This document shows positions 8,931 to 33,692 of a DNA stretch of 35,709 bases, one piece after another. The notes beneath the pieces were generated by a model. It made no database searches. It saw nothing but the letters and a program-made list of their open reading frames with translations, and had not been told where the DNA came from. Every line of letters begins with the position of its first letter. The stretch's first letter is position 1. The stretch is taken from the NCBI GenBank assembly GCA_028282625.1, contig JANQHP010000171.1:1-35709 (forward strand), read 5' to 3'. Source of the DNA: Rickettsiales bacterium (GTDB taxonomy: Bacteria > Pseudomonadota > Alphaproteobacteria > Rickettsiales > UBA8987). The position numbers were made by a program, and so were the translations under genes.

Positions 8931-9057
8931 ATAAATCCTTTTTGAGGGGAAAATAATCCCCTCTACTCCACCAACTGCACCCCACCAATTTACTAGCCGT
9001 TTAGGGTTTTTTTAATACTTTTTCTTTATACTACAAAGGTAGGTAAAGGAAAATATT

Positions 9058-9387
9058 ATGCGATATACCACATCCATCATGGTCTTGCTTGCTGTGCTTG
9101 GCACTGCTGGCTGCGGCATGGGCACAGGATTAAACGAATGGGGCGGCTATAAGCTACTGAGCCCCAGGCCTTTTATGCAAAATCTACCGGAAGGACACGA
9201 CGATTATAGCCGTGGCTTTCGTGCAGGGTGCAGCAGCTTTACCCGCACCGTGGGGTCAGGATTGCTTCGGATGTACGATAGTGACATGTACGATCCGGAG
9301 GAAGGCATTGAAAACAATGAATACTACGCAGGCTACCGTATCGGCAGCTATTACTGCACCCAATATTTAGACGTAGAGCCCATCTAG
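9058..9387 (+). CDS. Small lipoprotein, array paralog 1 (most diverged member)
   Basis: Signal peptide with lipobox LGTAG|C. Shares the motifs Y-x-x-G-F-x-A-G-C-S-S and Y-Y-A-G-Y-x-x-x-x-Y-C, with 41 residues between the two Cys. AAAGGA Shine-Dalgarno upstream. Confidence 0.7.
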   Translation: MRYTTSIMVLLAVLGTAGCGMGTGLNEWGGYKLLSPRPFMQNLPEGHDDYSRGFRAGCSSFTRTVGSGLLRMYDSDMYDPEEGIENNEYYAGYRIGSYYCTQYLDVEPI

Positions 9388-9396
9388 GAAAGCAGG

Positions 9397-9732
9397 ATGC
9401 AACACACCCTCATACGCTTATCTATTCTTATGCTGCTGCCTCTGTTGATAACAGGGTGCAACGGCAAGAATGGTAGCTTTGATATCCGCAAACCGGCATC
9501 GCTAGATCTCACGCCTCCTCCAGGTCCACCAGAATATGAGCAAGGGTGGAGCGATGGGTGTGAAAGTGGCATGAACGCCTATGCGCATGACTTTTACAAA
9601 TCCCTTCGTGTCTTTGACTTAAGGCTGGACCCTGTACTGCGTCAAAACCGTATGTATTACCAAGTGTGGAAGGACGCCTTCCTCTATTGCGCCATTTATT
9701 ATGATTCGGCCATCAACAGTCGGAAATTGTAG
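9397..9732 (+). CDS. Small lipoprotein, array paralog 2
   Basis: Lipobox LLITG|C. Motifs PPEYEQGWSDGCESG and YYQVWKDAFLYC, with 42 residues between the two Cys. 9-nt gap from paralog 1. Confidence 0.75.
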   Translation: MQHTLIRLSILMLLPLLITGCNGKNGSFDIRKPASLDLTPPPGPPEYEQGWSDGCESGMNAYAHDFYKSLRVFDLRLDPVLRQNRMYYQVWKDAFLYCAIYYDSAINSRKL

Positions 9733-9742
9733 GAGAACCACC

Positions 9743-10075
9743 ATGATACCATCCCCTACATCTTCCATCCTGCTTACCACATTGCTGGTCCTGATGCTTT
9801 CTGCCTGCAGCCCTTTTCCGCCCTGGGCCAGAAAGCTGGAAAAAGGCCCTCCTTCTATGGGCGATAAAGAATATAACCCGCTCTACCTGCAAGGGTGGCA
9901 AGATGGATGCCATAGCGGCATCTCCGCTTCCACCAATCTTTGGTACAAGTTTCAGTATGGCTTTAAGCAAAATGCAGAATTGGCACAAGATACCGTCTAC
10001 TACAAAGGCTGGAAAGATGCTTTCGATCTTTGCCAGCGCTATACGTACCAATATCGCAGGAGGCCTTTCATTTAG
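9743..10075 (+). CDS. Small lipoprotein, array paralog 3
   Basis: ATG 9743 is preceded by AGGAGA (9731-9736), which overlaps the paralog 2 stop codon. Lipobox LMLSA|C. Motifs YLQGWQDGCHSG and YYKGWKDAFDLC, with 40 residues between the two Cys. The tracked start at 9701 was rejected because it lies inside paralog 2. Confidence 0.75.
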   Translation: MIPSPTSSILLTTLLVLMLSACSPFPPWARKLEKGPPSMGDKEYNPLYLQGWQDGCHSGISASTNLWYKFQYGFKQNAELAQDTVYYKGWKDAFDLCQRYTYQYRRRPFI

Positions 10076-10084
10076 GATTAGCCC

Positions 10085-10429
10085 ATGCGTATCATCACCC
10101 TCACCATCTTATGCACTCTGATTGTGACGCTTTCAGCATGTCAGCAATTTACCAAACCGCGCCCCTGGGGCTTGGGTGAAACACCTGATGGCACGCCTGA
10201 ATTCCGCAAAGGGTGGGAAGATGGATGCGACACCGGTTTACGTGCCTATGGTGGCCACTGGTACCGCAACCGCTCCGGCTACAAGCACTTCAAACAGGAC
10301 TTAACCCTCATTCACAATCCGGAATACTACCGCGCATGGCGCGATGCCTTTACCTATTGCCGTTGGTATGTGTGGAATTGGCAAAGGCCCGCGCGTGGCA
10401 CCAATAACAAATATGCGATCTTTTTCTAA
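10085..10429 (+). CDS. Small lipoprotein, array paralog 4
   Basis: Lipobox VTLSA|C. Motifs FRKGWEDGCDTG and YYRAWRDAFTYC, with 43 residues between the two Cys. 9-nt gap from paralog 3. Confidence 0.75.
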   Translation: MRIITLTILCTLIVTLSACQQFTKPRPWGLGETPDGTPEFRKGWEDGCDTGLRAYGGHWYRNRSGYKHFKQDLTLIHNPEYYRAWRDAFTYCRWYVWNWQRPARGTNNKYAIFF

Positions 10430-10992
10430 TGTTTAAACACCCCACCCTCTTGATACTATGCGCCCTCATGTTGGTGAGTGGATGCCGTACCGTGTACGAA
10501 ATTCCTAAAACACCGCCTGAGAATGCACCGCCAGAATATAAAATGGGCTGGAAAGATGGCTGTGAGAGTGGCTTTTCCACCTTTAGTAACTATTACATGA
10601 AAATGCTTTATAGCTTTGCCATGGATATCAAATTAATGCAAGAATCCAGCTGGTATAACAAAGCATGGAACGACTCCTATGCCTACTGCCGTAGCTATAT
10701 GAACCGATTGCTGGCAGGTGACACCTTTAGTACGAGTAGCCCAGCACTTTTTGCGAATGATAGCATGCGGCTAAAAGCCGGTGGTCGCCTGCGTATGGGT
10801 GTCGCCGTTGAGGGTGATGAGGCTGAAAGCTCGCTTTTTAGAGGCCTTAGCCTGCCCGGCTGGGACCATAATGGCTGGGGAGGTAACACAGGCTGCAAAG
10901 AGAATTGGCTTAGCACCGGCTTCTGGGATTGTCCGGGTATGGGCAATCTCAACACACAGCAATGGCCCATGGGTGAGAGCACCTGGCCTTAG
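10429..10992 (+). CDS. Lipoprotein, array paralog 5, with a Trp/Gly-rich C-terminal extension
   Basis: TAATG stop/start overlap with paralog 4. Lipobox MLVSG|C. Motifs PPEYKMGWKDGCESG and WYNKAWNDSYAYC, with 41 residues between the two Cys. An extra tail of about 95 aa follows the shared domain. Confidence 0.75.
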   Translation: MFKHPTLLILCALMLVSGCRTVYEIPKTPPENAPPEYKMGWKDGCESGFSTFSNYYMKMLYSFAMDIKLMQESSWYNKAWNDSYAYCRSYMNRLLAGDTFSTSSPALFANDSMRLKAGGRLRMGVAVEGDEAESSLFRGLSLPGWDHNGWGGNTGCKENWLSTGFWDCPGMGNLNTQQWPMGESTWP

Positions 10993-11282
10993 ACACCGTT
11001 GTGACATAGGAGAATGTTTTGCCATGTGTTTGATTTTGCTTAAGAACAAGAAGATTTTCGACAGAGATGTGGGGGCATCTTTGGAGAACATGTTCGCCGT
11101 TATTAGGCAAAATCAACCATGGCCCTTCGGGTTGCGACTAAAACCGCTATCCACTGCGTCTTTATGCTTGACCATAGGCACACGATGCTCTGCGCATCAA
11201 TCCTTGTGGAGTAACGATTTTAGTCCGCAACAAAATAATTTCCTATCTAACAACAGTGTCTAGGCAAGTGCCAAAACCATCC

Positions 11283-14479: not shown

Positions 14480-16306
14480 TTAAGCACGAGAGCGCACATA
14501 AAGCCCCGGCGCATCCACGTGCTCTGCGCCGCGTAAGGCAACTGGCTGTCTTGCCTTAACGCTTTGCCCTGTGTGGCCATTTTGCACCATCCAGCGATCC
14601 CAATGTTCCCACCAGGAGGAAGCCTCATGGTGCATGGCGGAGGCAAACCATTGCTCAGCTTCTTCACCCGCCACACTGCCCTCCCAATACCCATAACGTT
14701 TTTTAGCAGGCGGGTTTACCACACCAGAAACATGCCCAGACTCTGTTAACACAAAACAGGGTGCTTGCTTCATATATTGCGAAGACGCATAGGCCGATTG
14801 CCAAGGCACAATGTGGTCCTCCAACGCCGCAAGAAAATAGGAAGGTGTCGTAATATTGCCAATATCAAGTGGCTTGCCTTTCATAGTGATCTTTTGCGGC
14901 TGAATCAAGGCATTCTCTTGATAAAACATCGTGATATATTCTTGATACATCTTCGCAGGCAAGTCGGTAACATCGTTATTCCAATATAAAATATCAAAAG
15001 GAAAGGGCTGCTTCCCCATCAGGTAGTTGTTGACTACAAAAGACCATATCAAGTCATTGGCGCGGAGCAAACGAAACACCAGCGCCATATCCTTCCCCGG
15101 CAGCACACCTTTTTTGGCAATACGCTCCTCAAAAGCATCCAACAAGCCCACATCCACGAAAGAGCCTAAATCACCGGTAGCGCCAAAATCGATAAGGGTG
15201 GTGATATAAGTCGCCGAGCGAATATGGTCGATAGAAACAGTACCAGGCCCCTTGGAAGCCGCCGAAAGCCACGCCAAGGTGCAAGCCAGTATTGTCCCAC
15301 CAATACAATACCCCATCACGTTGAGTTGCTTGGTTTTTGAAGCATGAAGCACTGCTTCCATGGCCGGCAGCACGCCATCTGCCATATAATCTTCGAACCG
15401 AACATCCGCATGCTTGGCAGTCGGATTCACCCACGACGTCACACAAACGGTATAACCACGCTCCACCAGCCATTTGATCAAGGATTTTTCCGGCGTAAGG
15501 TCCAGGATGTAATATTTATTAATCCATGGGGAAACGATCAACAAAGGTTTGGCATGGACAGTCGATGTCGCAGGCGCATATTGGATCACCTCCACCAAAT
15601 GGTTCCGAAAGATCACCTTTCCCTTGGTGGTAGCCACCGTTTTACCCAAGACAAACGCCGCATCATCGCAGGTCGAGGGCAAGTAGTAGCCTTGATCCTT
15701 CTGCGTCGAGTGCCGAAGATCCTCTAAAAATTGCTTCATGCCCTGCAAAATATTGTCCCCACCCGTGCGGGTAATCTCTTTCCATACCAAAGGGTTGGTC
15801 GCCGCAAAATTAGTGGGGGCCGAAGCATTGAGCCATTGTTGCGTATAAAACTGCATCCGCGCGTGTTGTTTTTCTGGTAACACATCCTGTGATGCCTGCA
15901 ATAAATTAGTCGTATACTGCACCGATAAAAAATAGGCTTGCTTAATGAGAGAAAAAACAGGATGCGCCTTCCAAATACCATCTTGAAATCGCCTGTCCTT
16001 CGGGTCTGGCATAAAAATTTCAGGTAAAGGTTCTCCTGCCGCCTGAGAAGAGATATTACCCCAGAGCGAAAGGGTGGATTGAAACCATTCCTGATAGTTT
16101 TTCCAAAATATTTCTGGCTTTTCCTGCGCAAATTGCATCCATGCCTGCATCATTTCATGCGCCGGTTGCATCGTATTCGTGCCATATTCTTCCTGCCACT
16201 GCAGCCAGAGCGTTTGAGATTCAACAAAAACCTCTTCCCAAAGCTTGGTCAAAGCAAGAAACGTTTCTTCCGAAAACGGAGAATGGGATACCGGACCATG
16301 CTGCAT
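14480..16306 (-). CDS. phaC: Class I poly(R)-hydroxyalkanoate synthase
   Basis: 608 aa. Lipase-box-like catalytic motif GYCIGGT, plus PLLIVSPWINKYYILDL and WNNDVTDLP segments typical of PhaC. Confidence 0.93.
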   Translation of the reverse strand: MQHGPVSHSPFSEETFLALTKLWEEVFVESQTLWLQWQEEYGTNTMQPAHEMMQAWMQFAQEKPEIFWKNYQEWFQSTLSLWGNISSQAAGEPLPEIFMPDPKDRRFQDGIWKAHPVFSLIKQAYFLSVQYTTNLLQASQDVLPEKQHARMQFYTQQWLNASAPTNFAATNPLVWKEITRTGGDNILQGMKQFLEDLRHSTQKDQGYYLPSTCDDAAFVLGKTVATTKGKVIFRNHLVEVIQYAPATSTVHAKPLLIVSPWINKYYILDLTPEKSLIKWLVERGYTVCVTSWVNPTAKHADVRFEDYMADGVLPAMEAVLHASKTKQLNVMGYCIGGTILACTLAWLSAASKGPGTVSIDHIRSATYITTLIDFGATGDLGSFVDVGLLDAFEERIAKKGVLPGKDMALVFRLLRANDLIWSFVVNNYLMGKQPFPFDILYWNNDVTDLPAKMYQEYITMFYQENALIQPQKITMKGKPLDIGNITTPSYFLAALEDHIVPWQSAYASSQYMKQAPCFVLTESGHVSGVVNPPAKKRYGYWEGSVAGEEAEQWFASAMHHEASSWWEHWDRWMVQNGHTGQSVKARQPVALRGAEHVDAPGLYVRSRA

Positions 16307-16333
16307 AGAACTTTTGCCTGATCGTATGTTATC

Positions 16334-16342
16334 TGGTATAAT
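16334..16342 (+). promoter_or_regulatory. Putative extended -10 promoter element (TGGTATAAT)
   Basis: Exact TGnTATAAT match in the phaC / Pro-rich lipoprotein divergent spacer. It lies downstream of the in-frame ATG at 16326, which argues for a GTG start at 16374 or 16380. Confidence 0.4.
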
Positions 16343-16373
16343 ACGTTATCTTTTACACGATAAATTAGGGCTT

Positions 16374-17108
16374 GTGAACGTGGTATTGCCTTTTCGCTTT
16401 CTATTCTTTTGCAGCGTCTGTTTGATCGCTCTTTCTGGATGCAACTGGGTCAAAAATACGTCTGAAAGGCTTGGGTCTTACTTGCCTACCTCCAAAGATA
16501 CCACACCATGTAAAGGCAAAATGTTCTGTAGCGATGAGGACATCGCAGCATCCGCTAAAGCAAGCAGCACATCCTATAGCAACAGGAAACCCGTCAATAG
16601 GCCTGCTCCCACCCAAGCGCAGGCATCCCCCGCGCAGGAAAGGGTGAGCCCACCCTACCCTAGCAACCCAGGAGCAACCCCTTATCCCTACCAATCCCCT
16701 TCCAATGCCGCACCCAATGCCGGCATGCATATCCCACCTGGTATGGTGGCAGTGCCCATGCCAGATAATTTTGTGCCACCTCCAGGCTCCATGGCCTTGC
16801 CTCCTTCTGCTAATACGCCACCTCAAGCATTTCCCGGGGCGCCTCCCTTTCCTCCAAACAACGCCATGTCCCCTTTTCAAGGCATGCCCGCACCACCTTT
16901 GGATGCCGGTGCACCACCCAAGCGCCTGGCGATTGATGCACATGGCAACCTCATTAATGCCGATACAGGCCAACCGGTTATACTGGACAAACACAACCAA
17001 CAAGGCTATAATGATAGCCGCTTAAAACCATGGGAGGCAAACCCGGAGTGGAAACATGACTTGCCCCCAAGTCCAGTTGATGACTTAAAAGAATCGTTGG
17101 ATTGGTAA
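16374..17108 (+). CDS. Proline-rich lipoprotein, unknown function
   Basis: Lipobox LIALSG|C after a hydrophobic h-region (PFRFLFFCSVCLIAL). The mature part is low-complexity and Pro-rich (PPGMVAVPMPDNFVPPPGSMALPPSANTPPQAFPGAPPFPP), followed by a short ordered-looking C-terminus. Start is ambiguous (16326 ATG, 16374 GTG or 16380 GTG). The tracked start at 16245 overlaps phaC and was rejected. Confidence 0.65.
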   Translation: MNVVLPFRFLFFCSVCLIALSGCNWVKNTSERLGSYLPTSKDTTPCKGKMFCSDEDIAASAKASSTSYSNRKPVNRPAPTQAQASPAQERVSPPYPSNPGATPYPYQSPSNAAPNAGMHIPPGMVAVPMPDNFVPPPGSMALPPSANTPPQAFPGAPPFPPNNAMSPFQGMPAPPLDAGAPPKRLAIDAHGNLINADTGQPVILDKHNQQGYNDSRLKPWEANPEWKHDLPPSPVDDLKESLDW

Positions 17109-20370: not shown

Positions 20371-20973
20371 TTATCCTATAGTCATAGTGCTACTGCCTGC
20401 TATACCACGTTCCCCCGGTTTTTGTGCACCACCCTCCAAAATAGCCCGCGCTGGGTTTTGTTGGTCTCTTATGTAAGAGTTAAGCGACTCCTGAAGGTTT
20501 TGCACGGACGCTGCGTCCACAAACCCCTTTTCTGCTAACTCTGAAAGCGTTTTCCACAGAGTGTTCACATCCTCTGGTGACTGCACCTCGATATATTGAA
20601 AGCTTACACTTCCATGATAAAGCCTATTTTTTTCTAGAAAATCAGCATGTTTCGTCCCTTGTGCAGACCCACCTGCAAAAAAGCTGTATGCAGGTGTGTG
20701 CTTACAAATACCTTTACTCTTTAATGTATCGGAAAGCGCTTCTGCACAGTCATCAAAATTTCCAGAAGGGCTTATTCTTGGCACGATTTCAATGGTAAAA
20801 TCTTTTTTAGTATTATTCTCGTTATCGTCATCGGAGCAAACAGCGCTTACCAAAACCGCACCAACCTGCTCACATTCAGTGCTAGTGAGCTGTGTAATAA
20901 AAACCCGCTCTAAGGTTGAATCACCGCCACGTGTTACCAGCAGTGTGTTAGTTCTAATTAGCTCCTCACTCAT
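20371..20973 (-). CDS. Hypothetical protein (200 aa), last gene of the fad-type operon
   Basis: ATG lies 3 nt after the upstream stop, with GAGGAA Shine-Dalgarno inside the end of the preceding gene. No motif I recognise. Acidic, with a DDDNENN patch. Confidence 0.6.
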   Translation of the reverse strand: MSEELIRTNTLLVTRGGDSTLERVFITQLTSTECEQVGAVLVSAVCSDDDNENNTKKDFTIEIVPRISPSGNFDDCAEALSDTLKSKGICKHTPAYSFFAGGSAQGTKHADFLEKNRLYHGSVSFQYIEVQSPEDVNTLWKTLSELAEKGFVDAASVQNLQESLNSYIRDQQNPARAILEGGAQKPGERGIAGSSTMTIG

Positions 20974-23471: not shown

Positions 23472-24689
23472 CTAGCCTCTTCCTCCAAAGCCTTGCCCAC
23501 CGCCGCGCTCTTGTTCGTGCTGCTCCGTAATTTTCTTGGCTAAATCCAGCATATCACTAAATGTTTGGTTTAAGTCAAAGTGATGGATTCCTTCTACTTT
23601 TTCAATCAACATCTTCATCCCGTCAACTAGCACAGTATTCTGCACCAACATACCAAGTTCATTCCAATCTTCCTGCAATTGCTTAAGGTTCCGCATGACC
23701 AGCTGAATACTTGTCTCCGCATGACCAAATGGGCCATGATCCCACTCAATCATATATTGGATGGATTCTGTATTTGCAAAATAAGGATCTTCCGTCATAT
23801 CGTCGGCCAGCTCCAACAAACTATCTGCCTCATCCTCGCTCAGATTTTCGGGCAGGTGATCATCCACTGCCTCATCTGAACATTTGGCTAACGTATTTAT
23901 CAATTTCAGCATCTTGAACAGGCCATGAAAGGCCCTATCCGCTCGCGCGGCCTGCAGCATCTCATCCACGCTTTTGTCACCACCAAAACGCTCTGCATAT
24001 GTTTTTGGTCCGTTATAAAGTGTCAACGCTTTGGATTTATTTACCACCCTTCCCGCTGCAGGCACAGGTTCCTCCACCACCGGCCCCACAATGTCTTCAC
24101 GCAGGGTGAGCAGCTTACCCACCACCGAGCCTATAGCTTCTTTATCCAGATTAATCTTCACATCGCGATGCTCAGCCGGCAATGTCTTCTTCACCTGAAA
24201 TTCAAAGGCATAAGCTGTTAATACTGGAAAAAAAGTTTTTTGAATTTCAGCCAATGCGTTTGCCATTTGTTCTCTTGAAACCGTTAATCGCGCCAAATTA
24301 TCTCTGGCCGTTTGATCCGCTTCTGCTGTATGGCCTTCGCCTAGAAAATACGGTGTTTCTTTGAGCATCGTTGCTAACGAACCCAAATAGTTTTCAACCT
24401 CAGCAACAGTATTATAAAAATATTCTATGGTATCAATAGCAGCAGTTTCTTTTTCATCTTCTTGCAAATGACCAGGACGGCTCATTATAATGTAATCTTT
24501 AAGTGTCTCCTTCCATTTTTCCAAATTCAGCGCCTCGTGCAATACACTAAAAAACAGGGTCAAATCCAAATCATCCCGCGCGGCTTTCAGGAGCGATGCT
24601 TCGCTCGGCGGACCAAACATCTCACTTAATGCCTTACTCGCCGCAGACCCCAAGGCTTGTTCTTCCACCTGATGCTCCTGCTCGGTCAT
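23472..24689 (-). CDS. Hypothetical acidic, probably all-helical protein (405 aa) with an internal two-fold repeat and a Gly/Arg tail
   Basis: Sits between the thiolase and dehydrogenase genes with 3-nt and 2-nt gaps. No recognisable catalytic motif. Repeat anchors FGxxxxxxxLxAARxD, HLxE, PYF and GH(T/A)AE occur once in each half. Ends in ERGGGQGFGGRG. Confidence 0.7.
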   Translation of the reverse strand: MTEQEHQVEEQALGSAASKALSEMFGPPSEASLLKAARDDLDLTLFFSVLHEALNLEKWKETLKDYIIMSRPGHLQEDEKETAAIDTIEYFYNTVAEVENYLGSLATMLKETPYFLGEGHTAEADQTARDNLARLTVSREQMANALAEIQKTFFPVLTAYAFEFQVKKTLPAEHRDVKINLDKEAIGSVVGKLLTLREDIVGPVVEEPVPAAGRVVNKSKALTLYNGPKTYAERFGGDKSVDEMLQAARADRAFHGLFKMLKLINTLAKCSDEAVDDHLPENLSEDEADSLLELADDMTEDPYFANTESIQYMIEWDHGPFGHAETSIQLVMRNLKQLQEDWNELGMLVQNTVLVDGMKMLIEKVEGIHHFDLNQTFSDMLDLAKKITEQHEQERGGGQGFGGRG

Positions 24690-26076: not shown

Positions 26077-26979
26077 ATGCGTATTATCGAACAGAACACA
26101 GAAGCACGCTTACTTGAAACCGCGTATAAAATTCGGACCGAATCCAGCAGCTGGCGGTGCATCTATGCACAATTTTCTGCCCTTAAACGCGGAGCGCACG
26201 ATGACATCCGCAGCAAGGTTGCACTCAATGATGCCAAGGCGCTTCTTAAAGAGACACAAAACACAGCCTTTGTGTGCAGCGATTACGACATGTTCATCCT
26301 GACCCAAGGCGTGGGAAGCGATGTGCTTAAACAAGTCCAAAAAAGCTTTCAAACCCTCGTCGAAGCCGAAGGGGGAAACCCAGACTGCATCGCCTGCTAT
26401 GATCTAGGCCCGCACTGGAAAACATTCTTTAAAGTCGTGTGCGATAAAAACCAAACACCTCAAGCCAGGGAAGAAGATACAGCGCCTAAAAAAGCCGCAC
26501 CCGCGCAAACCACCGTAAAGGCGCCTTCAAACACCAGCCCCCTCACCCTTCCCCCTACCGGGGAAAACCTGGCGCTCGCTAAAGAAGCGCTAACACAGCG
26601 TACCCAGCGTGAAGGGCTGCAAATACTCGTGGTAGAAGACGATGCCTTTTCCAGGCGTATCGTGCGCAACGCGCTACGCAATGTCGGTGAAATATTGGAA
26701 GCAGCCGACCTGCAGCAAGCCACAGAACATTACCTGCTTCGTGCACCGGATATCGTTTTCCTAGATATCAACCTGCCCGATGGAGATGGCATTGCCTTTT
26801 TAGAACAAATCGTTGGCTGGGACTCCGAAGCATTCGTGGTCATGCTAAGCGGCAACAGCTTTAAAGAGCACATCATGCAATCGATGCAAAAAGGTGCCAA
26901 AGGATTCGTTGCCAAGCCCTTTTCTAAAGAAAAGCTGCTAGATTATATCCATATGCACAAGGAGAACGGCCGTGGATAA
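26077..26979 (+). CDS. Response regulator with unknown N-terminal domain and C-terminal receiver (REC) domain
   Basis: REC domain at residues ~183-300: [12 protein letters not shown], phospho-acceptor context [13 protein letters not shown], and VVMLSG...GFVAKPF. N-terminal ~130 aa are unrecognised, followed by a Pro/Ala/Thr-rich linker. No DNA-binding, AAA+ or GGDEF-type output domain. Confidence 0.85.
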
Positions 26980-29503
26980 ACCCTATACCCAAAATATAGC
27001 CATAGAATACAGCGCTTCACAGCTTTCTGCGGTTCTCAATAATATCATCGATGGCATTTTGACCATTGATGCCAACAGCATCGTGCGAAGCTTCAGTCCT
27101 GCGGCAGAAAGGATCTTCGGCTATGCCTCACACGATATGGTAGGCAAAGACGTGATGCAACTGGTCGCAGAAAAAGAGCAAGTGTTTCTCAGGCAATATC
27201 TGGACATTTATTTGCAAAGCGGCGAAGCGGGTGAAGAAGGCGATATCGGCTTGGTACACACCATGGATGCGTTGCATCAAGATGGCCGCACTTTCCCCGC
27301 AGAAATAGGGATGACAAAAGTCGCACTGGAAAACGGTGAAACCGTACTCACAATTATCGTAAGGGATATCACAGAACGTGTGGATGCGCGCGAAGCGCTC
27401 AAACAAAAAACCCGCACGGTCAAGCTGATGCAGGATATCGCTACATCCGCCAATGCAGCTACTTCCCTTGAGGAGGCCATTAGCCAGGGTTTAAAGCTGG
27501 TATGTGATTATACCGGATGGCAAGTGGGACATTGCTACATCATGGAAGAGGATGGCATGGCCCTTTCCAGCAGCGGCATCTTACACCGCGCAACCACGGA
27601 AGCAAACATGGAAAGCTTTATCCAGCATTCCCTCAAGATGCAGTTCCATGTCGGAGAAGGCATCATTGGTAGTGTGGCTAAAACCGGCAAACCTTTTTGG
27701 GTCCAAGACCTTACCCAAGAAAAAAACTTTTTACGCCATAAAGAAGCCAAGCAATGTGATTTACACGCGGCCTTCTTCTTTCCCATTGTGTTTAATGAAG
27801 ATGTCGTAGGCGTCATGGAATTCTTCTGCAACACTCAGCAGGAGGAAGATACGCAAATTTTGCAAGTGATGGAAAATGCCGGCACCCAGTTTGGGCGTGT
27901 GATTGACCGTATTCAGTCAGAAGAAGCGCTTCGAAAAGCCAAAGAACTGGCCGAAGAGGCCAATATCGCCAAAAGCGACTTTCTGGCCAATATGAGCCAT
28001 GAACTGCGCACACCCATGAATGGTGTGATTGGGCTTTCCAACCTGCTTTTGGATTCCACCTTGGATGATGAGCAGGAGAAATTCATTACCGCCATTCGTT
28101 CCTCCGGCGAACAGCTCCTCTCCATTTTAAACGATATCTTGGACCTTTCTAAGATCGAGGCTGGCATGGTGGAGGTAGAAAATGAGCCCTTTAGTATCCG
28201 CGCTGCGATCGATGAATTGGCAGACCTCTATTTGCCCATTGCCAAAGAAAAGAATGTGATGCTACACGCCGATTATTGTACCGATATTCCGCCTGTTTTG
28301 ATAGGAGATGTGCACAAGATCCAGCAGTTGCTCCGCAATTTAGTTAGTAACGCCCTTAAATTTACCAAAACAGGCAGTGTGACCATCAACACCTCCTACC
28401 ACATGCAAGCCAACCAGTTTACCTGTGAAGTACGCGACACCGGCATCGGCATCCCCGCAGACCGTCTGGAACAGATTTTTGATAAATTCACCCAGGCCGA
28501 TGAGTCCACCACACGCAATTATGGTGGCACAGGTCTTGGCCTGGCCATTTGCAGGGAGCTATCCCTGCTCATGGGAGGTGAAATTGAAGTGGAAAGCACC
28601 GAGGGCAAAGGCTCCACCTTCCGCTTTATCTTGCCGCTTGCCGTGGCCAAAGAAGGGGAAAAGCCTGTCAATGCCATCCACACAGAGGAGGATGAAGAAA
28701 AGGTAGAAATCAACACGCAAAGCCGTTTGCTTATTGTCGATGACCATCCCGTCAACCAGATGTTTGCACAAAAGCTGCTCCACAAGATGGGCTTTTCCAA
28801 TGTTTCCTTGGCAGAAAATGGAGAAGAGGCACTCCAGCAAGTAGCAGAAGAGACCTTCGACCTTATCTTTATGGACTGCCAGATGCCTTGCATGGATGGC
28901 TATGAAACCACCGGCTGGATCCGCGATCAGGAGCTGGAAACAGGCAAGCATGTCCCCATCATTGCCATGACGGCCAATGCCATGGTCGGTGATAGGGATA
29001 AATGCCTCAAAGCAGGCATGGATGACTATATCAGCAAGCCGATCAACATCAACAAGCTGCGCGCTAGCATGCACCGCTGGCTTGGCAACCAAACCAGCCT
29101 GGCAACGGCCGATACGGTGACAAACGCCAAAGAACAAGAAGCAAACCATGCTGATATGCCGGTAGATTTAGACCATCTGCACATGTTTAGCGATGGCGAT
29201 GCGGAGGAAGAATATGCCTTGCTTGAAATCTTTTTCTCCCAAGCCAAGCAAAATATCGAGCAACTGCACAGCTGCATTGAAGCAAGCGGTGAGAACTGGG
29301 AAAGCTTGGCGCATGCCCTAAAAGGCTCGGCTGCCAATCTGGGAGCCACCACCCTTTCTGACTATTGCTTAAAAGCCGAGCAATCCCCTGAGGCAAGTAA
29401 GAGCGAACAAGAGGAAATGCTCAAGCATATCACCGAAGAAATTGAGCGCGTGCATCTTTTCCTCAACGAAAAACTTGCCAAAGTGCCCGCTTATTCAAGC
29501 TAG
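26972..29503 (+). CDS. Soluble hybrid sensor histidine kinase (PAS-GAF-HisKA-HATPase-REC-HPt)
   Basis: GTG start with AAGGAGA 8 nt upstream; overlaps the regulator gene by 8 nt. H-box [12 protein letters not shown]-box [10 protein letters not shown]-boxes DTGIGI and [12 protein letters not shown]: [11 protein letters not shown]...[15 protein letters not shown]...DDYISKPI. HPt: [12 protein letters not shown]. No hydrophobic TM segment at the N-terminus. Confidence 0.93.
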
Positions 29504-30430
29504 ACACTGTTCCACCTGCTGCCAAAATTGCGCGGCAGGGTCCGTCCCATATAAATCGGCAATCTCCTTAAACCCAATAGGTGAGGTTACGTTGACCTCG
29601 GTCACATAATCACCAATCACGTCAATACCACAAATATGCAGGTCTTTTTCCTGCAAGAAGGGGCTCAGAACTTGGCATATTTCATGCTCTTTTGGGGTGA
29701 TTTCACACGGCTGAAGGCTGCCACCGGCCATTAAATTGGCACGTACACTTCCTTCCTTTGGCACACGCAAAAATGCACCCGCAATCTCCCCTTGCAGCAG
29801 CAAAATACGCTTATCCCCCTGCACCACCTCAGGAATATAGCGCTGCACTACCACAGGCAACGCGGTGTTTAAAAGCATCTCATCCAGCGTGTCTTCTAAT
29901 GCCTCATCCTCATAGCGCAAACGCTCAATGCCCTGGCCACCAAACAGGTAGAGCGGCTTGAAAATCACATCTTGATGCTCCTTGATAAAACGCTGCACCA
30001 GCGCTTTTTCACGCGTGACCAATGTAGGCGGTGTATAAGGCTTTAACAGGTCGGGCAAAAATTTCTCCGGCGCATCCCGCACCGCCCTGGGTGGATTGAT
30101 CACCCGCACCGCATCCGACACATATTCCAACATATACGTACTGGTGACATACGCCATGTCAAAAGGCGGATCCTGACGCGCCATAATCACATCCATATCA
30201 TCTAGTGCCCTATAGCTTTTCTCTGATTCCTTAAAAAAGGGGGATTGTTGCATATCAAGCGTCACCTCAGAAACAAAAGCCATCACTTGCCCATCGCGTA
30301 GAGAAAGGCTCTCCGGTGTATAGTGAAACACTACGTGCCCGCGCTCTTGTGCGGCGATCATCAAGGTGAGGCTATTATTCTTTTGAGGATTGACATCCTC
30401 CATGGGCTCCATCTGGAAAGCAATACGCAA
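29495..30430 (-). CDS. gshB: Glutathione synthetase (ATP-grasp)
   Basis: N-terminus [32 protein letters not shown], and C-terminal ATP-grasp [17 protein letters not shown]. 311 aa. 9-nt convergent overlap with the kinase gene. Confidence 0.93.
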
Positions 30431-30474
30431 CGTATAAGACTCTTTAGTTGATCTTAAGCGCCGTGATGCAAAAA

Positions 30475-31068
30475 TTAATGGCGCTCAGGTGCATCGCGAA
30501 GCCGCATATGGCTCACCACTTTTTTGACACCCTTCACCTTGCTTGCAATCTCTAGCGCCGTGCTGAGCTCTTGCTGGCTTTTGGCCACGCCAATCAGGTA
30601 AACCGTGCCAGCGGCCACCTCCACGTTATAATTAATGGAGGAAACGCCTTTACCAAAAAGCAGCTTGGTTTTGACCTGGGCAGAAATCCACGCATCTTGC
30701 GCCAATTCTTGGGGTGTAATATCCCTATCGGAGACCTCAATCTCATTGATCACCTCAATCACCCCACGTGGCTGCCATGCGAGGCGAACCGCTTCCACCC
30801 GATGCGATTTTTCGCGCACCTTGCCTGTAAGCAACACACGCCCTTCATTCACCTCAATCCCCACACGATTAAACAAATTATTCACATGTTCCTGGATAAA
30901 ATAGGAATTAATCTGCGAATAAATGGTGGTATCATCCACAGCATTGCCAAGCGAACGCTCTTGCGCCGCGGCGTAACCCACCGCACCGGCACCGCCTGCC
31001 ACCACTGCCACACAGCCCTGCAACATCGGCAGCAAAAACAACATCAAAATCAAAGCAACGCCACGCAT
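30475..31068 (-). CDS. Dual-BON-domain lipoprotein (DolP/YraP-like)
   Basis: Lipobox PMLQG|C and two BON-type repeats (e.g. VEVNEGRVLLTGKV and VEVAAGTVYLIGVAKS). Positioned next to yraN and rsmI, as yraP is in E. coli. Confidence 0.85.
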   Translation of the reverse strand: MRGVALILMLFLLPMLQGCVAVVAGGAGAVGYAAAQERSLGNAVDDTTIYSQINSYFIQEHVNNLFNRVGIEVNEGRVLLTGKVREKSHRVEAVRLAWQPRGVIEVINEIEVSDRDITPQELAQDAWISAQVKTKLLFGKGVSSINYNVEVAAGTVYLIGVAKSQQELSTALEIASKVKGVKKVVSHMRLRDAPERH

Positions 31069-31117
31069 ATCCTTATCCTTTTTTCCTTTTACTCCTCATG
31101 CAAAACCAGGCCCTTCA

Positions 31118-31486
31118 TTACGCCGCATCAAAGGCATGTTTTGTGTGATACACACGGCCAAATGGGGCACACCATATCAAATCAAACCGCGGCTGAAGCC
31201 TAGCATACTCCGGATGCTTTGCAATAAAGAATGCAAAAGCGCGCGTAATCCTTTGTTGCTGTTTTTTTGTGAGCACCTCTCCTCCAAGTAGCGTTTTGTG
31301 CGCCTTGACTTCCACCGCCACCAAATACTGCCTGTTGCGCACAATCATATCAATTTCACCGACTGCCACCTTGTAGCGTCGCTGGACCAGCCGATATCCT
31401 CTTAGCCACAAATACGCGCAAGCCCAATATTCCGCCAAAATCCCACGACGATACGCACGTTTGCGTTTGGCCCGATTTGGATGCAT
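31118..31486 (-). CDS. yraN: YraN family (UPF0102) endonuclease-like protein
   Basis: Start set at ATG 31486, giving 122 aa, the typical family size. GILAEYWACAYLWLRGYRLVQRRYKVAVGEIDMIV...LVAVEVK matches the YraN core. The tracked start at 31582 runs into rsmI and was rejected. Confidence 0.85.
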   Translation of the reverse strand: MHPNRAKRKRAYRRGILAEYWACAYLWLRGYRLVQRRYKVAVGEIDMIVRNRQYLVAVEVKAHKTLLGGEVLTKKQQQRITRAFAFFIAKHPEYARLQPRFDLIWCAPFGRVYHTKHAFDAA

Positions 31487-31499
31487 GCGCGTCCTACCC

Positions 31500-32378
31500 C
31501 TACCGATCTTTGATCTCAAGTGCACGCGCATAGACCTGCTTTTTCGACCAGCCGCACTGCGTTGCGACCAAGCTTGCCGCATCCTTGACCTTCAAATACT
31601 CCAACGCTTCTTCAATCGCTTTGTCCACCATCTCCTGCGACCATTGCTCATGTATAACAGCCCCTTCCACCATAAGTATCACCTCACCCTTCACCCCCTT
31701 ATCCTGGTAATGGGCGACCACCTCCTCTACCGGTGCACACATCACTTCCTCGTGCCGCTTGGTCAGCTCCCTTGCCACCGAAACCCTTCGGTTTCCAAGC
31801 ACCGCATGAATCGCTTCAAGGCTCGCAACCAAGCGCCCGGCCCGCTCCATCCACACCAAAGTGGCTTCTAGCGCCGCCACCTTAAGCAACAAGGCCTCGC
31901 GCGCTTTTTGCTTCACCGGCATAAAGCCCATAAACAAGCATTGGTCGGTCGGCAACCCGCTTAATGTCCACCCGGCAATCACAGAACAGGCACCCGGCAC
32001 CACCGAAACATCAAAGCCCAACTCACGCACATATTGCACCAGCTTATAGCCAGGGTCATTCACAAGAGGTGACCCCGCATCGCTCACAAGCGCACCCGAC
32101 TTCCCCAAGCCAAGCTGCATTACAAGATGCTCCCTGGCTCTTTGATCGCTATGATCATGATAGACCTGCATCTTGGTCGTAATACCATAATGCTTGAGCA
32201 ACTTGCTTGTCACACGGGTATCTTCGCAGTAAATGAGGTCCACCGTACGCAGCACATCCAACGCACGCAGGGTGATATCGGCCAAATGCCCTATCGGTGT
32301 TGCCACCAGATAAAGACCGGGCGCAAGCCCCAAACCCATACCCTCTTCTTGGCTTTTATTGGCAGGCGGTGTATGCAT
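31500..32378 (-). CDS. rsmI: 16S rRNA (cytidine1402-2'-O)-methyltransferase
   Basis: Tetrapyrrole-methylase-fold RsmI: LYLVATPIGHLADITLRALDVLRTVDLIYCEDTR, SDAGSPLVNDPG, and C-terminal ELTKRHEE. Confidence 0.93.
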   Translation of the reverse strand: MHTPPANKSQEEGMGLGLAPGLYLVATPIGHLADITLRALDVLRTVDLIYCEDTRVTSKLLKHYGITTKMQVYHDHSDQRAREHLVMQLGLGKSGALVSDAGSPLVNDPGYKLVQYVRELGFDVSVVPGACSVIAGWTLSGLPTDQCLFMGFMPVKQKAREALLLKVAALEATLVWMERAGRLVASLEAIHAVLGNRRVSVARELTKRHEEVMCAPVEEVVAHYQDKGVKGEVILMVEGAVIHEQWSQEMVDKAIEEALEYLKVKDAASLVATQCGWSKKQVYARALEIKDR

Positions 32379-32408
32379 AAGAATACCAAAAACAATGCCC
32401 TCTCTTGT

Positions 32409-33692
32409 ATGCTTCTACCATACCGCACCAATTGCTTGCTATGCCTTTTTTTGCTGCTCGTGCTTGTGGCTAAACCCGCCCTTGCCGAGGAATCAGACCT
32501 GCCCGAAGCACCCCTCACAGAAGAAACACTGCCTACAAACGAGCCAAACCCCATCATCGGGGAAAGCCTGCCCGTGATGCGCCTCCACCCTCCTACTACT
32601 CCTCTTGTATGCCACACCACCGAGCAGACGCCCCGTATTGCAGCACTCTTGCCACTGTCCGGTGCCTGGCAAGCCATCGGCAATATACTGCTTCAGAGCA
32701 TGCTGCTTGCCTATGAGAACACGGCTACCACACCCACCATTTCGCTGAATTTCTACGATACAAAAAGCAGTGAAGAAGGAGCCAGGAGCGCGTTTCTTCA
32801 TGCCACATCTGAAGGCGCGTCGCTAGTGATTGGGCCCGTTTTTGCAGACCACACCCAGGCCATTTCCGCCATGGCCGAACACACCAAGACCATGACTTTT
32901 TCCTTGTCCAATATTTCTTCTAATACAACGGATAATCCTTATATCTTCAACTTTGGCATTAGACCTGAACATGCGCTTGAAACCTTAGCAAGCGCGGCTA
33001 TTTTTCACGGCAAAACACATTTTTTGGCGGCCCTACCGGATACACCTGAGGGGCTTCGTTACCACACCACGCTAAGTGCCATCTTAAAGGCAAAGCAGCA
33101 CCGCTTGGCACACACCATTTGGTACGGCGTCGACCATTACAATATGTCCGAAACACTCGCAGCATTTGATGCCATCTTAGAGCAGAACCAAAACGACCCC
33201 TCTTTTCCGGCGCACGCCGCACTTTTTGTACCCTCCGCCAGCACGCAAACCCTTTCTCTCTTAAAGCAACTGGAAAGTCACCATAAGCTCAAAGGGATGC
33301 AAATCCTTGGCAGCGGCGAGTGGGATACTATGTATACCAAACAAGATCCATGGTTTACCAACCTATGGTTTGCTTCAACCGACCCTGCCTTGCAGCAGCA
33401 CTTTCACACCCTGTTTCTAGAACGATATGGCGTGGCTCCCCTACGCATTGCAAGCATTGCTTACGATGCTACTGCCATGGCGGTAGCGCTGCTGACACAG
33501 CAAGAAGCATTGCTGCCATCTTCCTTATACCATAAGCGCTTTGAAGGATTTAACGGGGTTTTTGCATTTCAAGATAACGGTCAGGCGGCATACCATCTGA
33601 CCACCCTCAAAATGACAGGGAAGACGCCCCAAAAAGTTACAACAAAATCCTCCCAAGCACCTGATGTAACACCAATCGGCCCCTTGCCGTAA
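32409..33692 (+). CDS. LpoA/LppC-like penicillin-binding-protein activator (type-1 periplasmic binding fold)
   Basis: Signal peptide ending ALA|EE, and RIAALLPLSGAWQAIGNILLQSMLLAY typical of LppC/LpoA-family proteins. Divergent from rsmI, as yraM is in E. coli. Start at 32409 is preferred; 32373 is possible. The tracked start at 32127 lies inside rsmI antisense and was rejected. Confidence 0.7.
   Translation: MLLPYRTNCLLCLFLLLVLVAKPALAEESDLPEAPLTEETLPTNEPNPIIGESLPVMRLHPPTTPLVCHTTEQTPRIAALLPLSGAWQAIGNILLQSMLLAYENTATTPTISLNFYDTKSSEEGARSAFLHATSEGASLVIGPVFADHTQAISAMAEHTKTMTFSLSNISSNTTDNPYIFNFGIRPEHALETLASAAIFHGKTHFLAALPDTPEGLRYHTTLSAILKAKQHRLAHTIWYGVDHYNMSETLAAFDAILEQNQNDPSFPAHAALFVPSASTQTLSLLKQLESHHKLKGMQILGSGEWDTMYTKQDPWFTNLWFASTDPALQQHFHTLFLERYGVAPLRIASIAYDATAMAVALLTQQEALLPSSLYHKRFEGFNGVFAFQDNGQAAYHLTTLKMTGKTPQKVTTKSSQAPDVTPIGPLP

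Follow-up and report, generated by a model that had tools for sequence, protein, structure and literature searches.

A contig of a Rickettsiales bacterium (GenBank assembly GCA_028282625.1, contig JANQHP010000171.1, positions 1 to 35,709; this whole stretch of 35,709 nucleotides (nt) is called the window below) carries five small lipoprotein genes in a row, and the question that this locus raises is whether their products act separately, for example as immunity proteins, or as the parts of one structure. The original prediction, which was made from the DNA letters alone, preferred immunity or inhibitor lipoproteins against cell-wall-targeting effectors and named a heteromeric envelope complex as its second option. 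Comparison of the array with its relatives in other genomes favours the second option, on the evidence of the five-domain set, its order, a natural gene fusion and the co-duplication of the genes. The array occupies positions 9058-10992 of the plus strand and consists of five closely spaced open reading frames (ORFs), each of which encodes a signal peptide, a lipobox and a core of ~65 amino acids (aa) with two conserved Cys residues. In gene order they are:

9058-9387, plus strand: LpA, putative position-1 subunit, 109 aa; lipobox Cys19 at nt 9112-9114; core at ~aa 43-104, with Cys58 and Cys100
9397-9732, plus strand: LpB, putative position-2 subunit, 111 aa; lipobox Cys21 at nt 9457-9459; core at ~aa 40-102, with Cys55 and Cys98
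9743-10075, plus strand: LpC, putative position-3 subunit, 110 aa; lipobox Cys22 at nt 9806-9808; core with Cys56 and Cys97
10085-10429, plus strand: LpD, putative position-4 subunit, 114 aa; lipobox Cys19 at nt 10139-10141; core with Cys48 and Cys92
10429-10992, plus strand: LpE, putative position-5 subunit, 187 aa; lipobox Cys19 at nt 10483-10485; core at ~aa 29-91, with Cys45 and Cys87

The first step is whether the five genes belong to one family. LpB to LpE match one another in BLASTP at E 1e-8 to 1e-14 with 28-42% identity, and their paralogy is therefore far above chance. LpA is the most diverged paralogue (26% identity, E 7e-4; blocks GFRAGC ... YYAGYRIGSYYC). A core-only hidden Markov model (HMM) of positions 2-5 of other genomes, built without the signal peptides, recovered LpA at E 1.3e-9 and all 56 position-1 proteins at E≤1e-3, and we take LpA to be a true member of the family. 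The two core Cys residues are 42, 43, 41, 44 and 42 residues apart in LpA to LpE, a range of 41-44 in place of the 40-43 given originally. The N- and C-terminal sequence blocks quoted at that time all occur in the proteins, but they had been listed out of gene order.

The family is genuine, but its distribution is narrow. A word-indexed profile search returned 146 proteins, none of them with a Pfam domain, and when 1.84 billion cluster representatives were searched exhaustively with HMMER, 621 matched at E≤1e-3, 292 of them at E≤1e-10; the best 150 of the 621 are 78-233 aa long. Scanning one genome for each GTDB species with peptide patterns located 75 loci in ~63 assemblies, all of them from metagenome-assembled genomes (MAGs) plus one single-cell assembly, with labels such as Rickettsiales, Rickettsiaceae, Alphaproteobacteria or similar. 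Cultured organisms were not found among the 75 loci, which for a scan with two peptide patterns only is not proof of absence.

Six-frame ORFs were called in all loci and searched with the family HMM, and the result is an architecture that hardly varies. Exactly five family domains, in one same-strand run and in the same order, were present in 55 of the 64 arrays that are not cut by a contig end (the window included), and three further arrays of the 64 have four domains in the run and the fifth elsewhere in the locus. The remaining untruncated arrays are partial second arrays alongside a full one, or belong to a single MAG in which the set is divided 3+2 over two contigs (L028 and L055). The order also has a meaning at the level of the individual protein. 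The best hit in another locus is the gene at the same position in 80, 71, 76, 62 and 53% of comparisons for positions 1-5, respectively, and for the window genes LpA to LpE this holds in 51, 46, 52, 43 and 32 of 55 other loci. Maximum identities of LpA to LpE to their orthologues are 51, 71, 61, 71 and 39%, as against 26-42% between the paralogues, and each position has its own conserved signature residues beyond the shared core. Orthology thus tracks position, which bears out the earlier view that the duplications are old and have been maintained.

The number five is kept even where genes have merged. Four arrays (L052, L053, L059 and L060) have only four genes, but their gene 2 carries two family domains, so that the total is still five:

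L052 6773-7474, L053 7992-8612, L059 7953-8630 and L060 7941-8636: fusion genes of positions 2 and 3, with a conserved linker and no second lipobox

A large protein database contains eleven clusters of fusion proteins of this kind, with 45-57% mutual identity; all have the conserved linker and a second domain that has lost its lipobox. Moreover, the whole array appears to be the unit of duplication: seven assemblies contain two complete five-gene arrays (L003 and L038, L030 and L032, L033 and L036, L035 and L041, L043 and L044, L029 and L050, L057 and L061). The second copies are similar to one another, e.g. at position 4 (GM.DGAP.GT..FR.GWK.GC), and because of this resemblance they suggest two ancient array types. 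A fixed set of distinct members with positional orthology and a natural subunit fusion are both found here, as would be looked for in an operon-encoded paralogous hetero-oligomer, a working class that corresponds to no named family.

The gene layout in the window agrees with expression as one unit. All five ORFs, their lengths and their junctions are as originally described, with gaps of 9, 10 and 9 nt at LpA/B, B/C and C/D and a 1-nt TAATG overlap of the LpD stop and the LpE start. A single transcription unit, as was proposed, is plausible from these short gaps together with the median gaps of 2-4.5 nt in other arrays (48-52 arrays, ~40% of junctions overlapping). AGGA-like Shine-Dalgarno motifs precede genes 1-4 (LpA to LpD), and LpD ends in a Trp-rich C-terminus (CRWYVWNW). 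The same five genes, among them the 110-aa LpC, were called independently on a second assembly of this DNA. An alternative in-frame ATG of LpC at 9701 (stretch 9701-9742) would extend the protein to 124 aa and overlap LpB by 32 nt; it is probably not used, and the start at 9743 has an AGGAG motif upstream and was the one chosen by the independent gene call. Minus-strand ORFs that overlap the array (e.g. 9713-10051 and 10771-11091) were given no weight, because the plus-strand genes have hundreds of conserved homologues. Upstream of the array lies one further feature:

8931-9057, plus strand: intergenic region of 127 nt between nagZ and LpA, presumed from its position only to be the promoter region of the operon

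A consensus scan revealed no sigma-70-like site in this region above chance, nor a terminator above chance after LpE.

What would the individual products look like? By sequence, all five are bacterial lipoproteins (Lgt/LspA substrates), as first proposed, with an N-terminal signal peptide and a lipobox with an invariant Cys. The lipoboxes of LpA to LpE are, in order, TAG|C, ITG|C, LSA|C, LSA|C and VSG|C. Across 280 family members the lipobox Cys is conserved in 88-100% at each of the five positions. A strict lipobox regular expression matched 47-49 of 56 members per position, the remainder having relaxed boxes such as LPGC or LQSC, and the Pfam model LPAM_1 matched 11 of 121 family members. 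The residues following the lipid Cys (+2) are G, N, S, Q and R in LpA to LpE; to our knowledge the +2 sorting rule of E. coli has not been established for this lineage, and we therefore do not transfer it. LolA is encoded within the window; lipoprotein trafficking would thus be available and delivery of the array proteins to the outer membrane is possible.

The Cys pair of the core is kept with similar strictness. Both residues are aligned in 269 of 280 members (HMM alignment, complete arrays), and non-conservation of the lipobox or the Cys pair in orthologues, which the original prediction named as a finding that would speak against it, was not encountered, as both are conserved across the 280 members. 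Nine position-5 proteins from one AT-rich clade have a loop insertion of ~30 residues and retain the second Cys in its motif; in the position-5 genes of L065-L075 (e.g. L072 9319-9840) this insertion (…IRxRYKKELxxxNW…) lies between the long helices and both Cys motifs are kept. The first Cys is absent in 2 of 280 members only (L036 position 2 and L003 position 5), and in these the second is absent too, both with C to L accompanied by C to G. These are two independent paired losses, as a structural disulfide predicts.

An AlphaFold2 (AF2) model of LpB, computed from a 121-sequence alignment, has a predicted local distance difference test (pLDDT) score of 90.8 and a predicted template modelling (pTM) score of 0.77. 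It shows, in order, the signal-peptide helix, an extended Pro-rich segment, a helix at 45-62, a short helix at 65-69, a loop and a helix at 85-106. Cys55 belongs to the helix at 45-62 and Cys98 to that at 85-106. The predicted core of LpB is thus a small hairpin whose two long helices carry one Cys each, probably joined by a disulfide. The motifs G-C-x-S-G (helix 1) and A-x-x-Y-C (helix 3) look like small-residue helix-packing motifs around this disulfide. Trp, Tyr, Asp, Lys and Asn residues are near-invariant across all paralogues, and could form subunit interfaces or a shared ligand site. LpE differs in having an extension:

10702-10989, plus strand: C-terminal tail of LpE, ~aa 92-187, from an alignment of 56 position-5 proteins

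In the majority of arrays the position-5 gene is the long one; the median length of its mature product is 166 aa. The tail is Gly/Trp-rich, poorly conserved and variable in both length and sequence among the 56 aligned proteins, and is probably flexible. It contains a second Cys pair (C-KENWLSTGFWD-C; motif C-x2-(D/N)WL-x-(R/T)-x4-5-C), which together with PGWG/GWG motifs is common to near relatives (L001, L002 and L005) only and is not found family-wide.

What has to be explained is therefore a conserved gene set in a fixed order, whose products share a lipobox, a Cys pair and a predicted fold. We propose that one operon would encode five subunits that differ from each other and cannot replace one another, all from a lipoprotein family that had not been catalogued before. 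Every one of them would be exported, anchored in the membrane by the lipid on its N-terminal Cys and would face the periplasm, where its ~65-residue helical hairpin would probably be stapled by one disulfide between the two long helices. Side by side, the five would assemble into a single membrane-anchored hetero-oligomer with a stoichiometry of five domains, to which subunit 5 would add a long flexible Gly/Trp-rich tail with the second Cys pair, and the complex would have a housekeeping role in the envelope of a clade of uncultured Rickettsiales-like Alphaproteobacteria. The case for this model is made by the fixed five-domain set, the fixed order, the position-specific conservation, the translational coupling, the Rosetta-stone fusion and the array-wise duplication. 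That the five genes encode one hetero-oligomeric, periplasm-facing lipoprotein complex with one copy of each subunit is a proposal that we judge to be evenly balanced between right and wrong; its assembly, stoichiometry, membrane and function are all put forward conditionally.

Several points weigh against it. Firstly, proteins that work one after another or alongside each other, with no stable complex between them, can likewise be encoded by fixed gene sets, be fused and be duplicated together, and contact between the subunits is something that we infer. Secondly, the sole multi-domain model, an AF2 prediction of the natural position 2-3 fusion, is poor and says nothing on the interface (pLDDT 56.9; the alignment was kept at a shallow 11 sequences, with single-domain homologues left out because MAFFT split them across both domains). 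Thirdly, the disulfide is deduced from conservation and helix placement. Lastly, partial extra arrays of two or three genes occur in a few assemblies (L027, L034, L037 and L049), hence subsets may also function. A more specific form of the model goes further and is offered tentatively, as we would sooner expect it to fail than to hold: a closed, pseudo-symmetric 1:1:1:1:1 bundle or ring of disulfide-stapled hairpins with five lipid anchors, which would have originated once, in a deep clade of uncultured Rickettsiales-like Alphaproteobacteria; a later duplication of the entire array would have given some lineages two array types.

The genomic neighbourhood bears on all other explanations. In the window the array is preceded by ftsK, lolA, a DUF520 gene, an RNase T-like gene, erpA, a dGTPase gene, argS, a SPOR-domain gene and nagZ, and it converges on ftsA-ftsQ-ddl. 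The GC content of the array (0.48-0.50) equals that of its flanks, and on this ground, together with the housekeeping neighbours, a horizontal-transfer or phage origin was rejected. Clustering of all flanking ORFs showed no neighbour common to more than 11 of the 75 loci, and a Pfam scan of the 137 nearest flanking ORFs of these loci gave 139 different families, with NuoL (8), ThiL (7), glycosyltransferases (4), Band 7 (4) and SelO, MurJ and FabD (3 each) leading among the top 25. The cell-wall neighbourhood that the original prediction stressed (SPOR protein, nagZ, ddl-ftsQ-ftsA) is consequently a property of this genome only; elsewhere the array stands next to nuoL, thiL, fabD, band-7 genes and others. 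Since its neighbourhood is not conserved between loci, the array seems to be a self-contained cassette that has moved between housekeeping contexts.

Some neighbours do recur in smaller groups. In the divergent AT-rich loci L066-L075 (e.g. L071 5383-7344 and L070 9043-11055) the array lies ~230 nt upstream of nuoL on the same strand, an arrangement seen in 8-11 loci, and in 7-9 other loci it lies downstream of thiL. Common descent of the loci, and not a functional link, could account for these adjacencies. Four loci (L035 4507-5019, minus strand; L043 11819-12277, minus strand; and two others) have, downstream of the array and on the other strand, a gene for a small Cys-rich protein (~150-170 aa) that begins with a signal sequence. 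Its median distance from the array is 17 nt, but ~2.3 kb in L043.

Instead of assembling with each other, the five proteins might be parallel, independent periplasmic binding or chaperone-like modules, which would use the same aromatic/acidic surface (W, Y, D, K, N) for different variants of one ligand class, e.g. peptidoglycan or glycan fragments, lipopolysaccharide or client proteins. Of the alternatives this one survives best, and it has the near-invariant Trp, Tyr, Asp, Lys and Asn in its favour, a composition typical of carbohydrate-binding sites, as well as the own signature residues that each position adds. The array also adjoins nagZ and the SPOR-domain gene in the window and is flanked by MurJ in three loci, but this cell-wall setting is not kept from locus to locus. 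A large part of the invariant set (the GxxxG-like G-C-x-S-G and A-x-x-x-C) moreover seems to resemble helix-packing residues more than it does a binding site. For independent binders the copy number would usually differ between lineages, but here it stays at five domains even through gene fusion, and duplications copy the whole array and not single genes. It therefore seems unlikely, if still worth serious attention, that the proteins work as separate binders.

The proteins could also belong, as accessory lipoproteins, to a larger conserved machine of the envelope or of respiration whose other genes lie elsewhere in the genome; complex I, a cell-wall synthase or a division complex might be extended in this way on the periplasmic side. 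The location just upstream of nuoL in the divergent AT-rich loci is the only hint of complex I and comes from one clade; in the window, the position between nagZ and ftsA-ftsQ-ddl would fit the cell-wall and division variants. By analogy, disulfide-stapled CHCH hairpins are accessory subunits of mitochondrial complex I. Against this, no partner gene recurs beyond the 11 of 75 loci mentioned above, the nuoL linkage is confined to one related group, and neither Pfam, the PDB profile search nor Foldseek gave sequence or fold similarity to a known accessory subunit, which makes such a role quite improbable. Tandem small periplasmic lipoproteins are a known format for immunity genes of the type VI secretion system (T6SS) and for lysozyme inhibitors, and the paralogues are strongly diverged, but an immunity or inhibitor function against periplasm-acting, cell-wall-targeting effectors is nevertheless very unlikely, because no toxin, effector, Rhs, T6SS or other secretion component is among the top 25 flanking Pfam families, the clusters of neighbours that recur in the 75 loci include neither effectors or toxins nor T6SS or Rhs families, no Pfam inhibitor or immunity family matches, number, order and positional orthology are fixed across ~63 assemblies (five domains in 55 of 64 arrays) in contrast to typically variable immunity arrays, orthologues are well conserved (up to 71% identity) and two members are fused in a whole lineage, so that the effector linkage, variable copy number and rapid turnover expected from the original preference all fail.

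Is the family already known under another name? The core of the five window proteins had no match in Pfam (none at E≤1) or NCBIfam, and a Pfam scan of 121 aligned family members gave the lipoprotein attachment-site model in 11 and scattered one-off noise, again leaving the core unmatched. A PHROGs search yielded only a marginal match of LpE to phrog_456 (E 0.052) over residues 7-36, i.e. the signal peptide and lipobox. The family profile against all PDB sequences gave a single match at E 0.16 in signal-peptide and linker columns, and none in the core. Foldseek searches with the LpB model had best E values of 2 against PDB and 0.56 against BFVD, both of them weak negatives, since the signal-peptide helix was part of the query and hairpins of two helices are difficult to search with. 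No description of the family came up in the literature, searched also with exact motif strings, and members that are named at all in the sources are called 'hypothetical protein'. The core domain, which had originally been left unassigned, accordingly stays without a Pfam, NCBIfam, PDB-sequence or fold match, and the HMM and structure searches that had been proposed as a check matched the core to no characterised family in Pfam, NCBIfam, PHROG, PDB or BFVD. Membership of a known immunity or inhibitor family was likewise not found with Pfam and NCBIfam for the five proteins, Pfam for the 121 members, the PDB profile or Foldseek. The family is outside every sequence or structure catalogue that was tested. 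For an ordered operon of five paralogous mini-lipoproteins we neither know nor found a named counterpart, and it is new both as a family and as a module, although a 'lipoprotein envelope complex' as such is a familiar general category.

Comparison with known systems shows where the likeness ends. The BamBCDE, LptE and Pal-type lipoproteins resemble the array proteins in being Sec/Lol-type, periplasm-facing, encoded among housekeeping genes and presumed parts of an assembly. Their subunits, however, are mutually unrelated and dock on an integral membrane partner, whereas the array encodes five paralogues of one small domain, has no linked partner gene and has no sequence or fold match. T6SS immunity proteins of the Tsi/Tai type and the lysozyme inhibitors MliC/PliC and LprI are also small periplasmic lipoproteins that are sometimes encoded in tandem; the array differs in lacking a family match and a linked effector, and in its fixed ordered five, positional orthology and gene fusion. 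PulS/OutS pilotins are small all-helical disulfide-containing outer-membrane lipoproteins and share size, lipid anchor, helical content and (putatively) a disulfide with the array proteins, but they are single genes and not ordered fives, no Pfam or PDB match connects the two and no secretin or type II secretion system genes are nearby.

Mitochondrial CHCH proteins (twin Cx9C) and the Helicobacter Hcp/Sel1-like repeats are small alpha-hairpins of an oxidising compartment with Cys on the helices, a likeness that is drawn from the AF2 secondary structure. The array proteins have a lipid anchor and one Cys per helix at a distance of 41-44 residues instead of a twin Cx9C/Cx7C pattern, and with neither a Pfam nor a Foldseek match to CHCH or Sel1 the resemblance is treated as an analogy, not as homology. 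A profile or fold match to CHCH, Sel1/Hcp or PulS/OutS proteins was not found, with no Pfam match at E≤1 and Foldseek no better than the E values given above. Rz1-like o-spanins are small Pro-rich lipoproteins as well, and the weak phrog_456 match of LpE (E 0.052) points to them; this identity was rejected, as the match covers residues 7-36 only and the array has housekeeping neighbours, no phage context and flank-equal GC.

Further away from the array, the window contains several other genes of interest. At 29495-33692 lie gshB, a BON-domain protein gene (30475-31068, minus strand), a UPF0102/YraN gene (31118-31582, minus strand), rsmI (31500-32378, minus strand) and, at 32127-33692 on the plus strand, a gene for an LppC/LpoA-like periplasmic-binding lipoprotein, an LpoA-like candidate activator of penicillin-binding proteins; we take this layout to match the rsmI-lpoA-yraN-diaA-dolP region of E. 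coli. Three ORFs of the window have no Pfam match: 16245-17108 (plus strand, 287 aa), 20371-20973 (minus strand, 200 aa) and 23472-24689 (minus strand, 405 aa), the last of which is located between a thiolase gene and a FadB-like 3-hydroxyacyl-CoA dehydrogenase/enoyl-CoA hydratase gene. Positions 26077-29503 encode a response-regulator protein followed by a large hybrid histidine kinase (PAS, GAF, HisKA, HATPase, REC and Hpt domains).

The host organisms are uncultured and the array bears on no long-standing question yet. Still, an ordered five-domain module is kept across dozens of species-level lineages of uncultured Rickettsiales-like bacteria, a group in which the nearest relatives of major intracellular pathogens, both free-living and protist-associated, are found, and it may be of use as a taxonomic marker and as a candidate for a new envelope structure and function. 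A more general lesson is that small lipoproteins encoded in tandem should not be taken for immunity proteins by default. If the proposed hetero-oligomer exists, the array would offer a clean natural case of such a complex evolving from paralogues through duplication, subfunctionalisation, fusion and duplication of the whole operon, and a closed assembly of five hairpins would be a new type of bacterial envelope complex.

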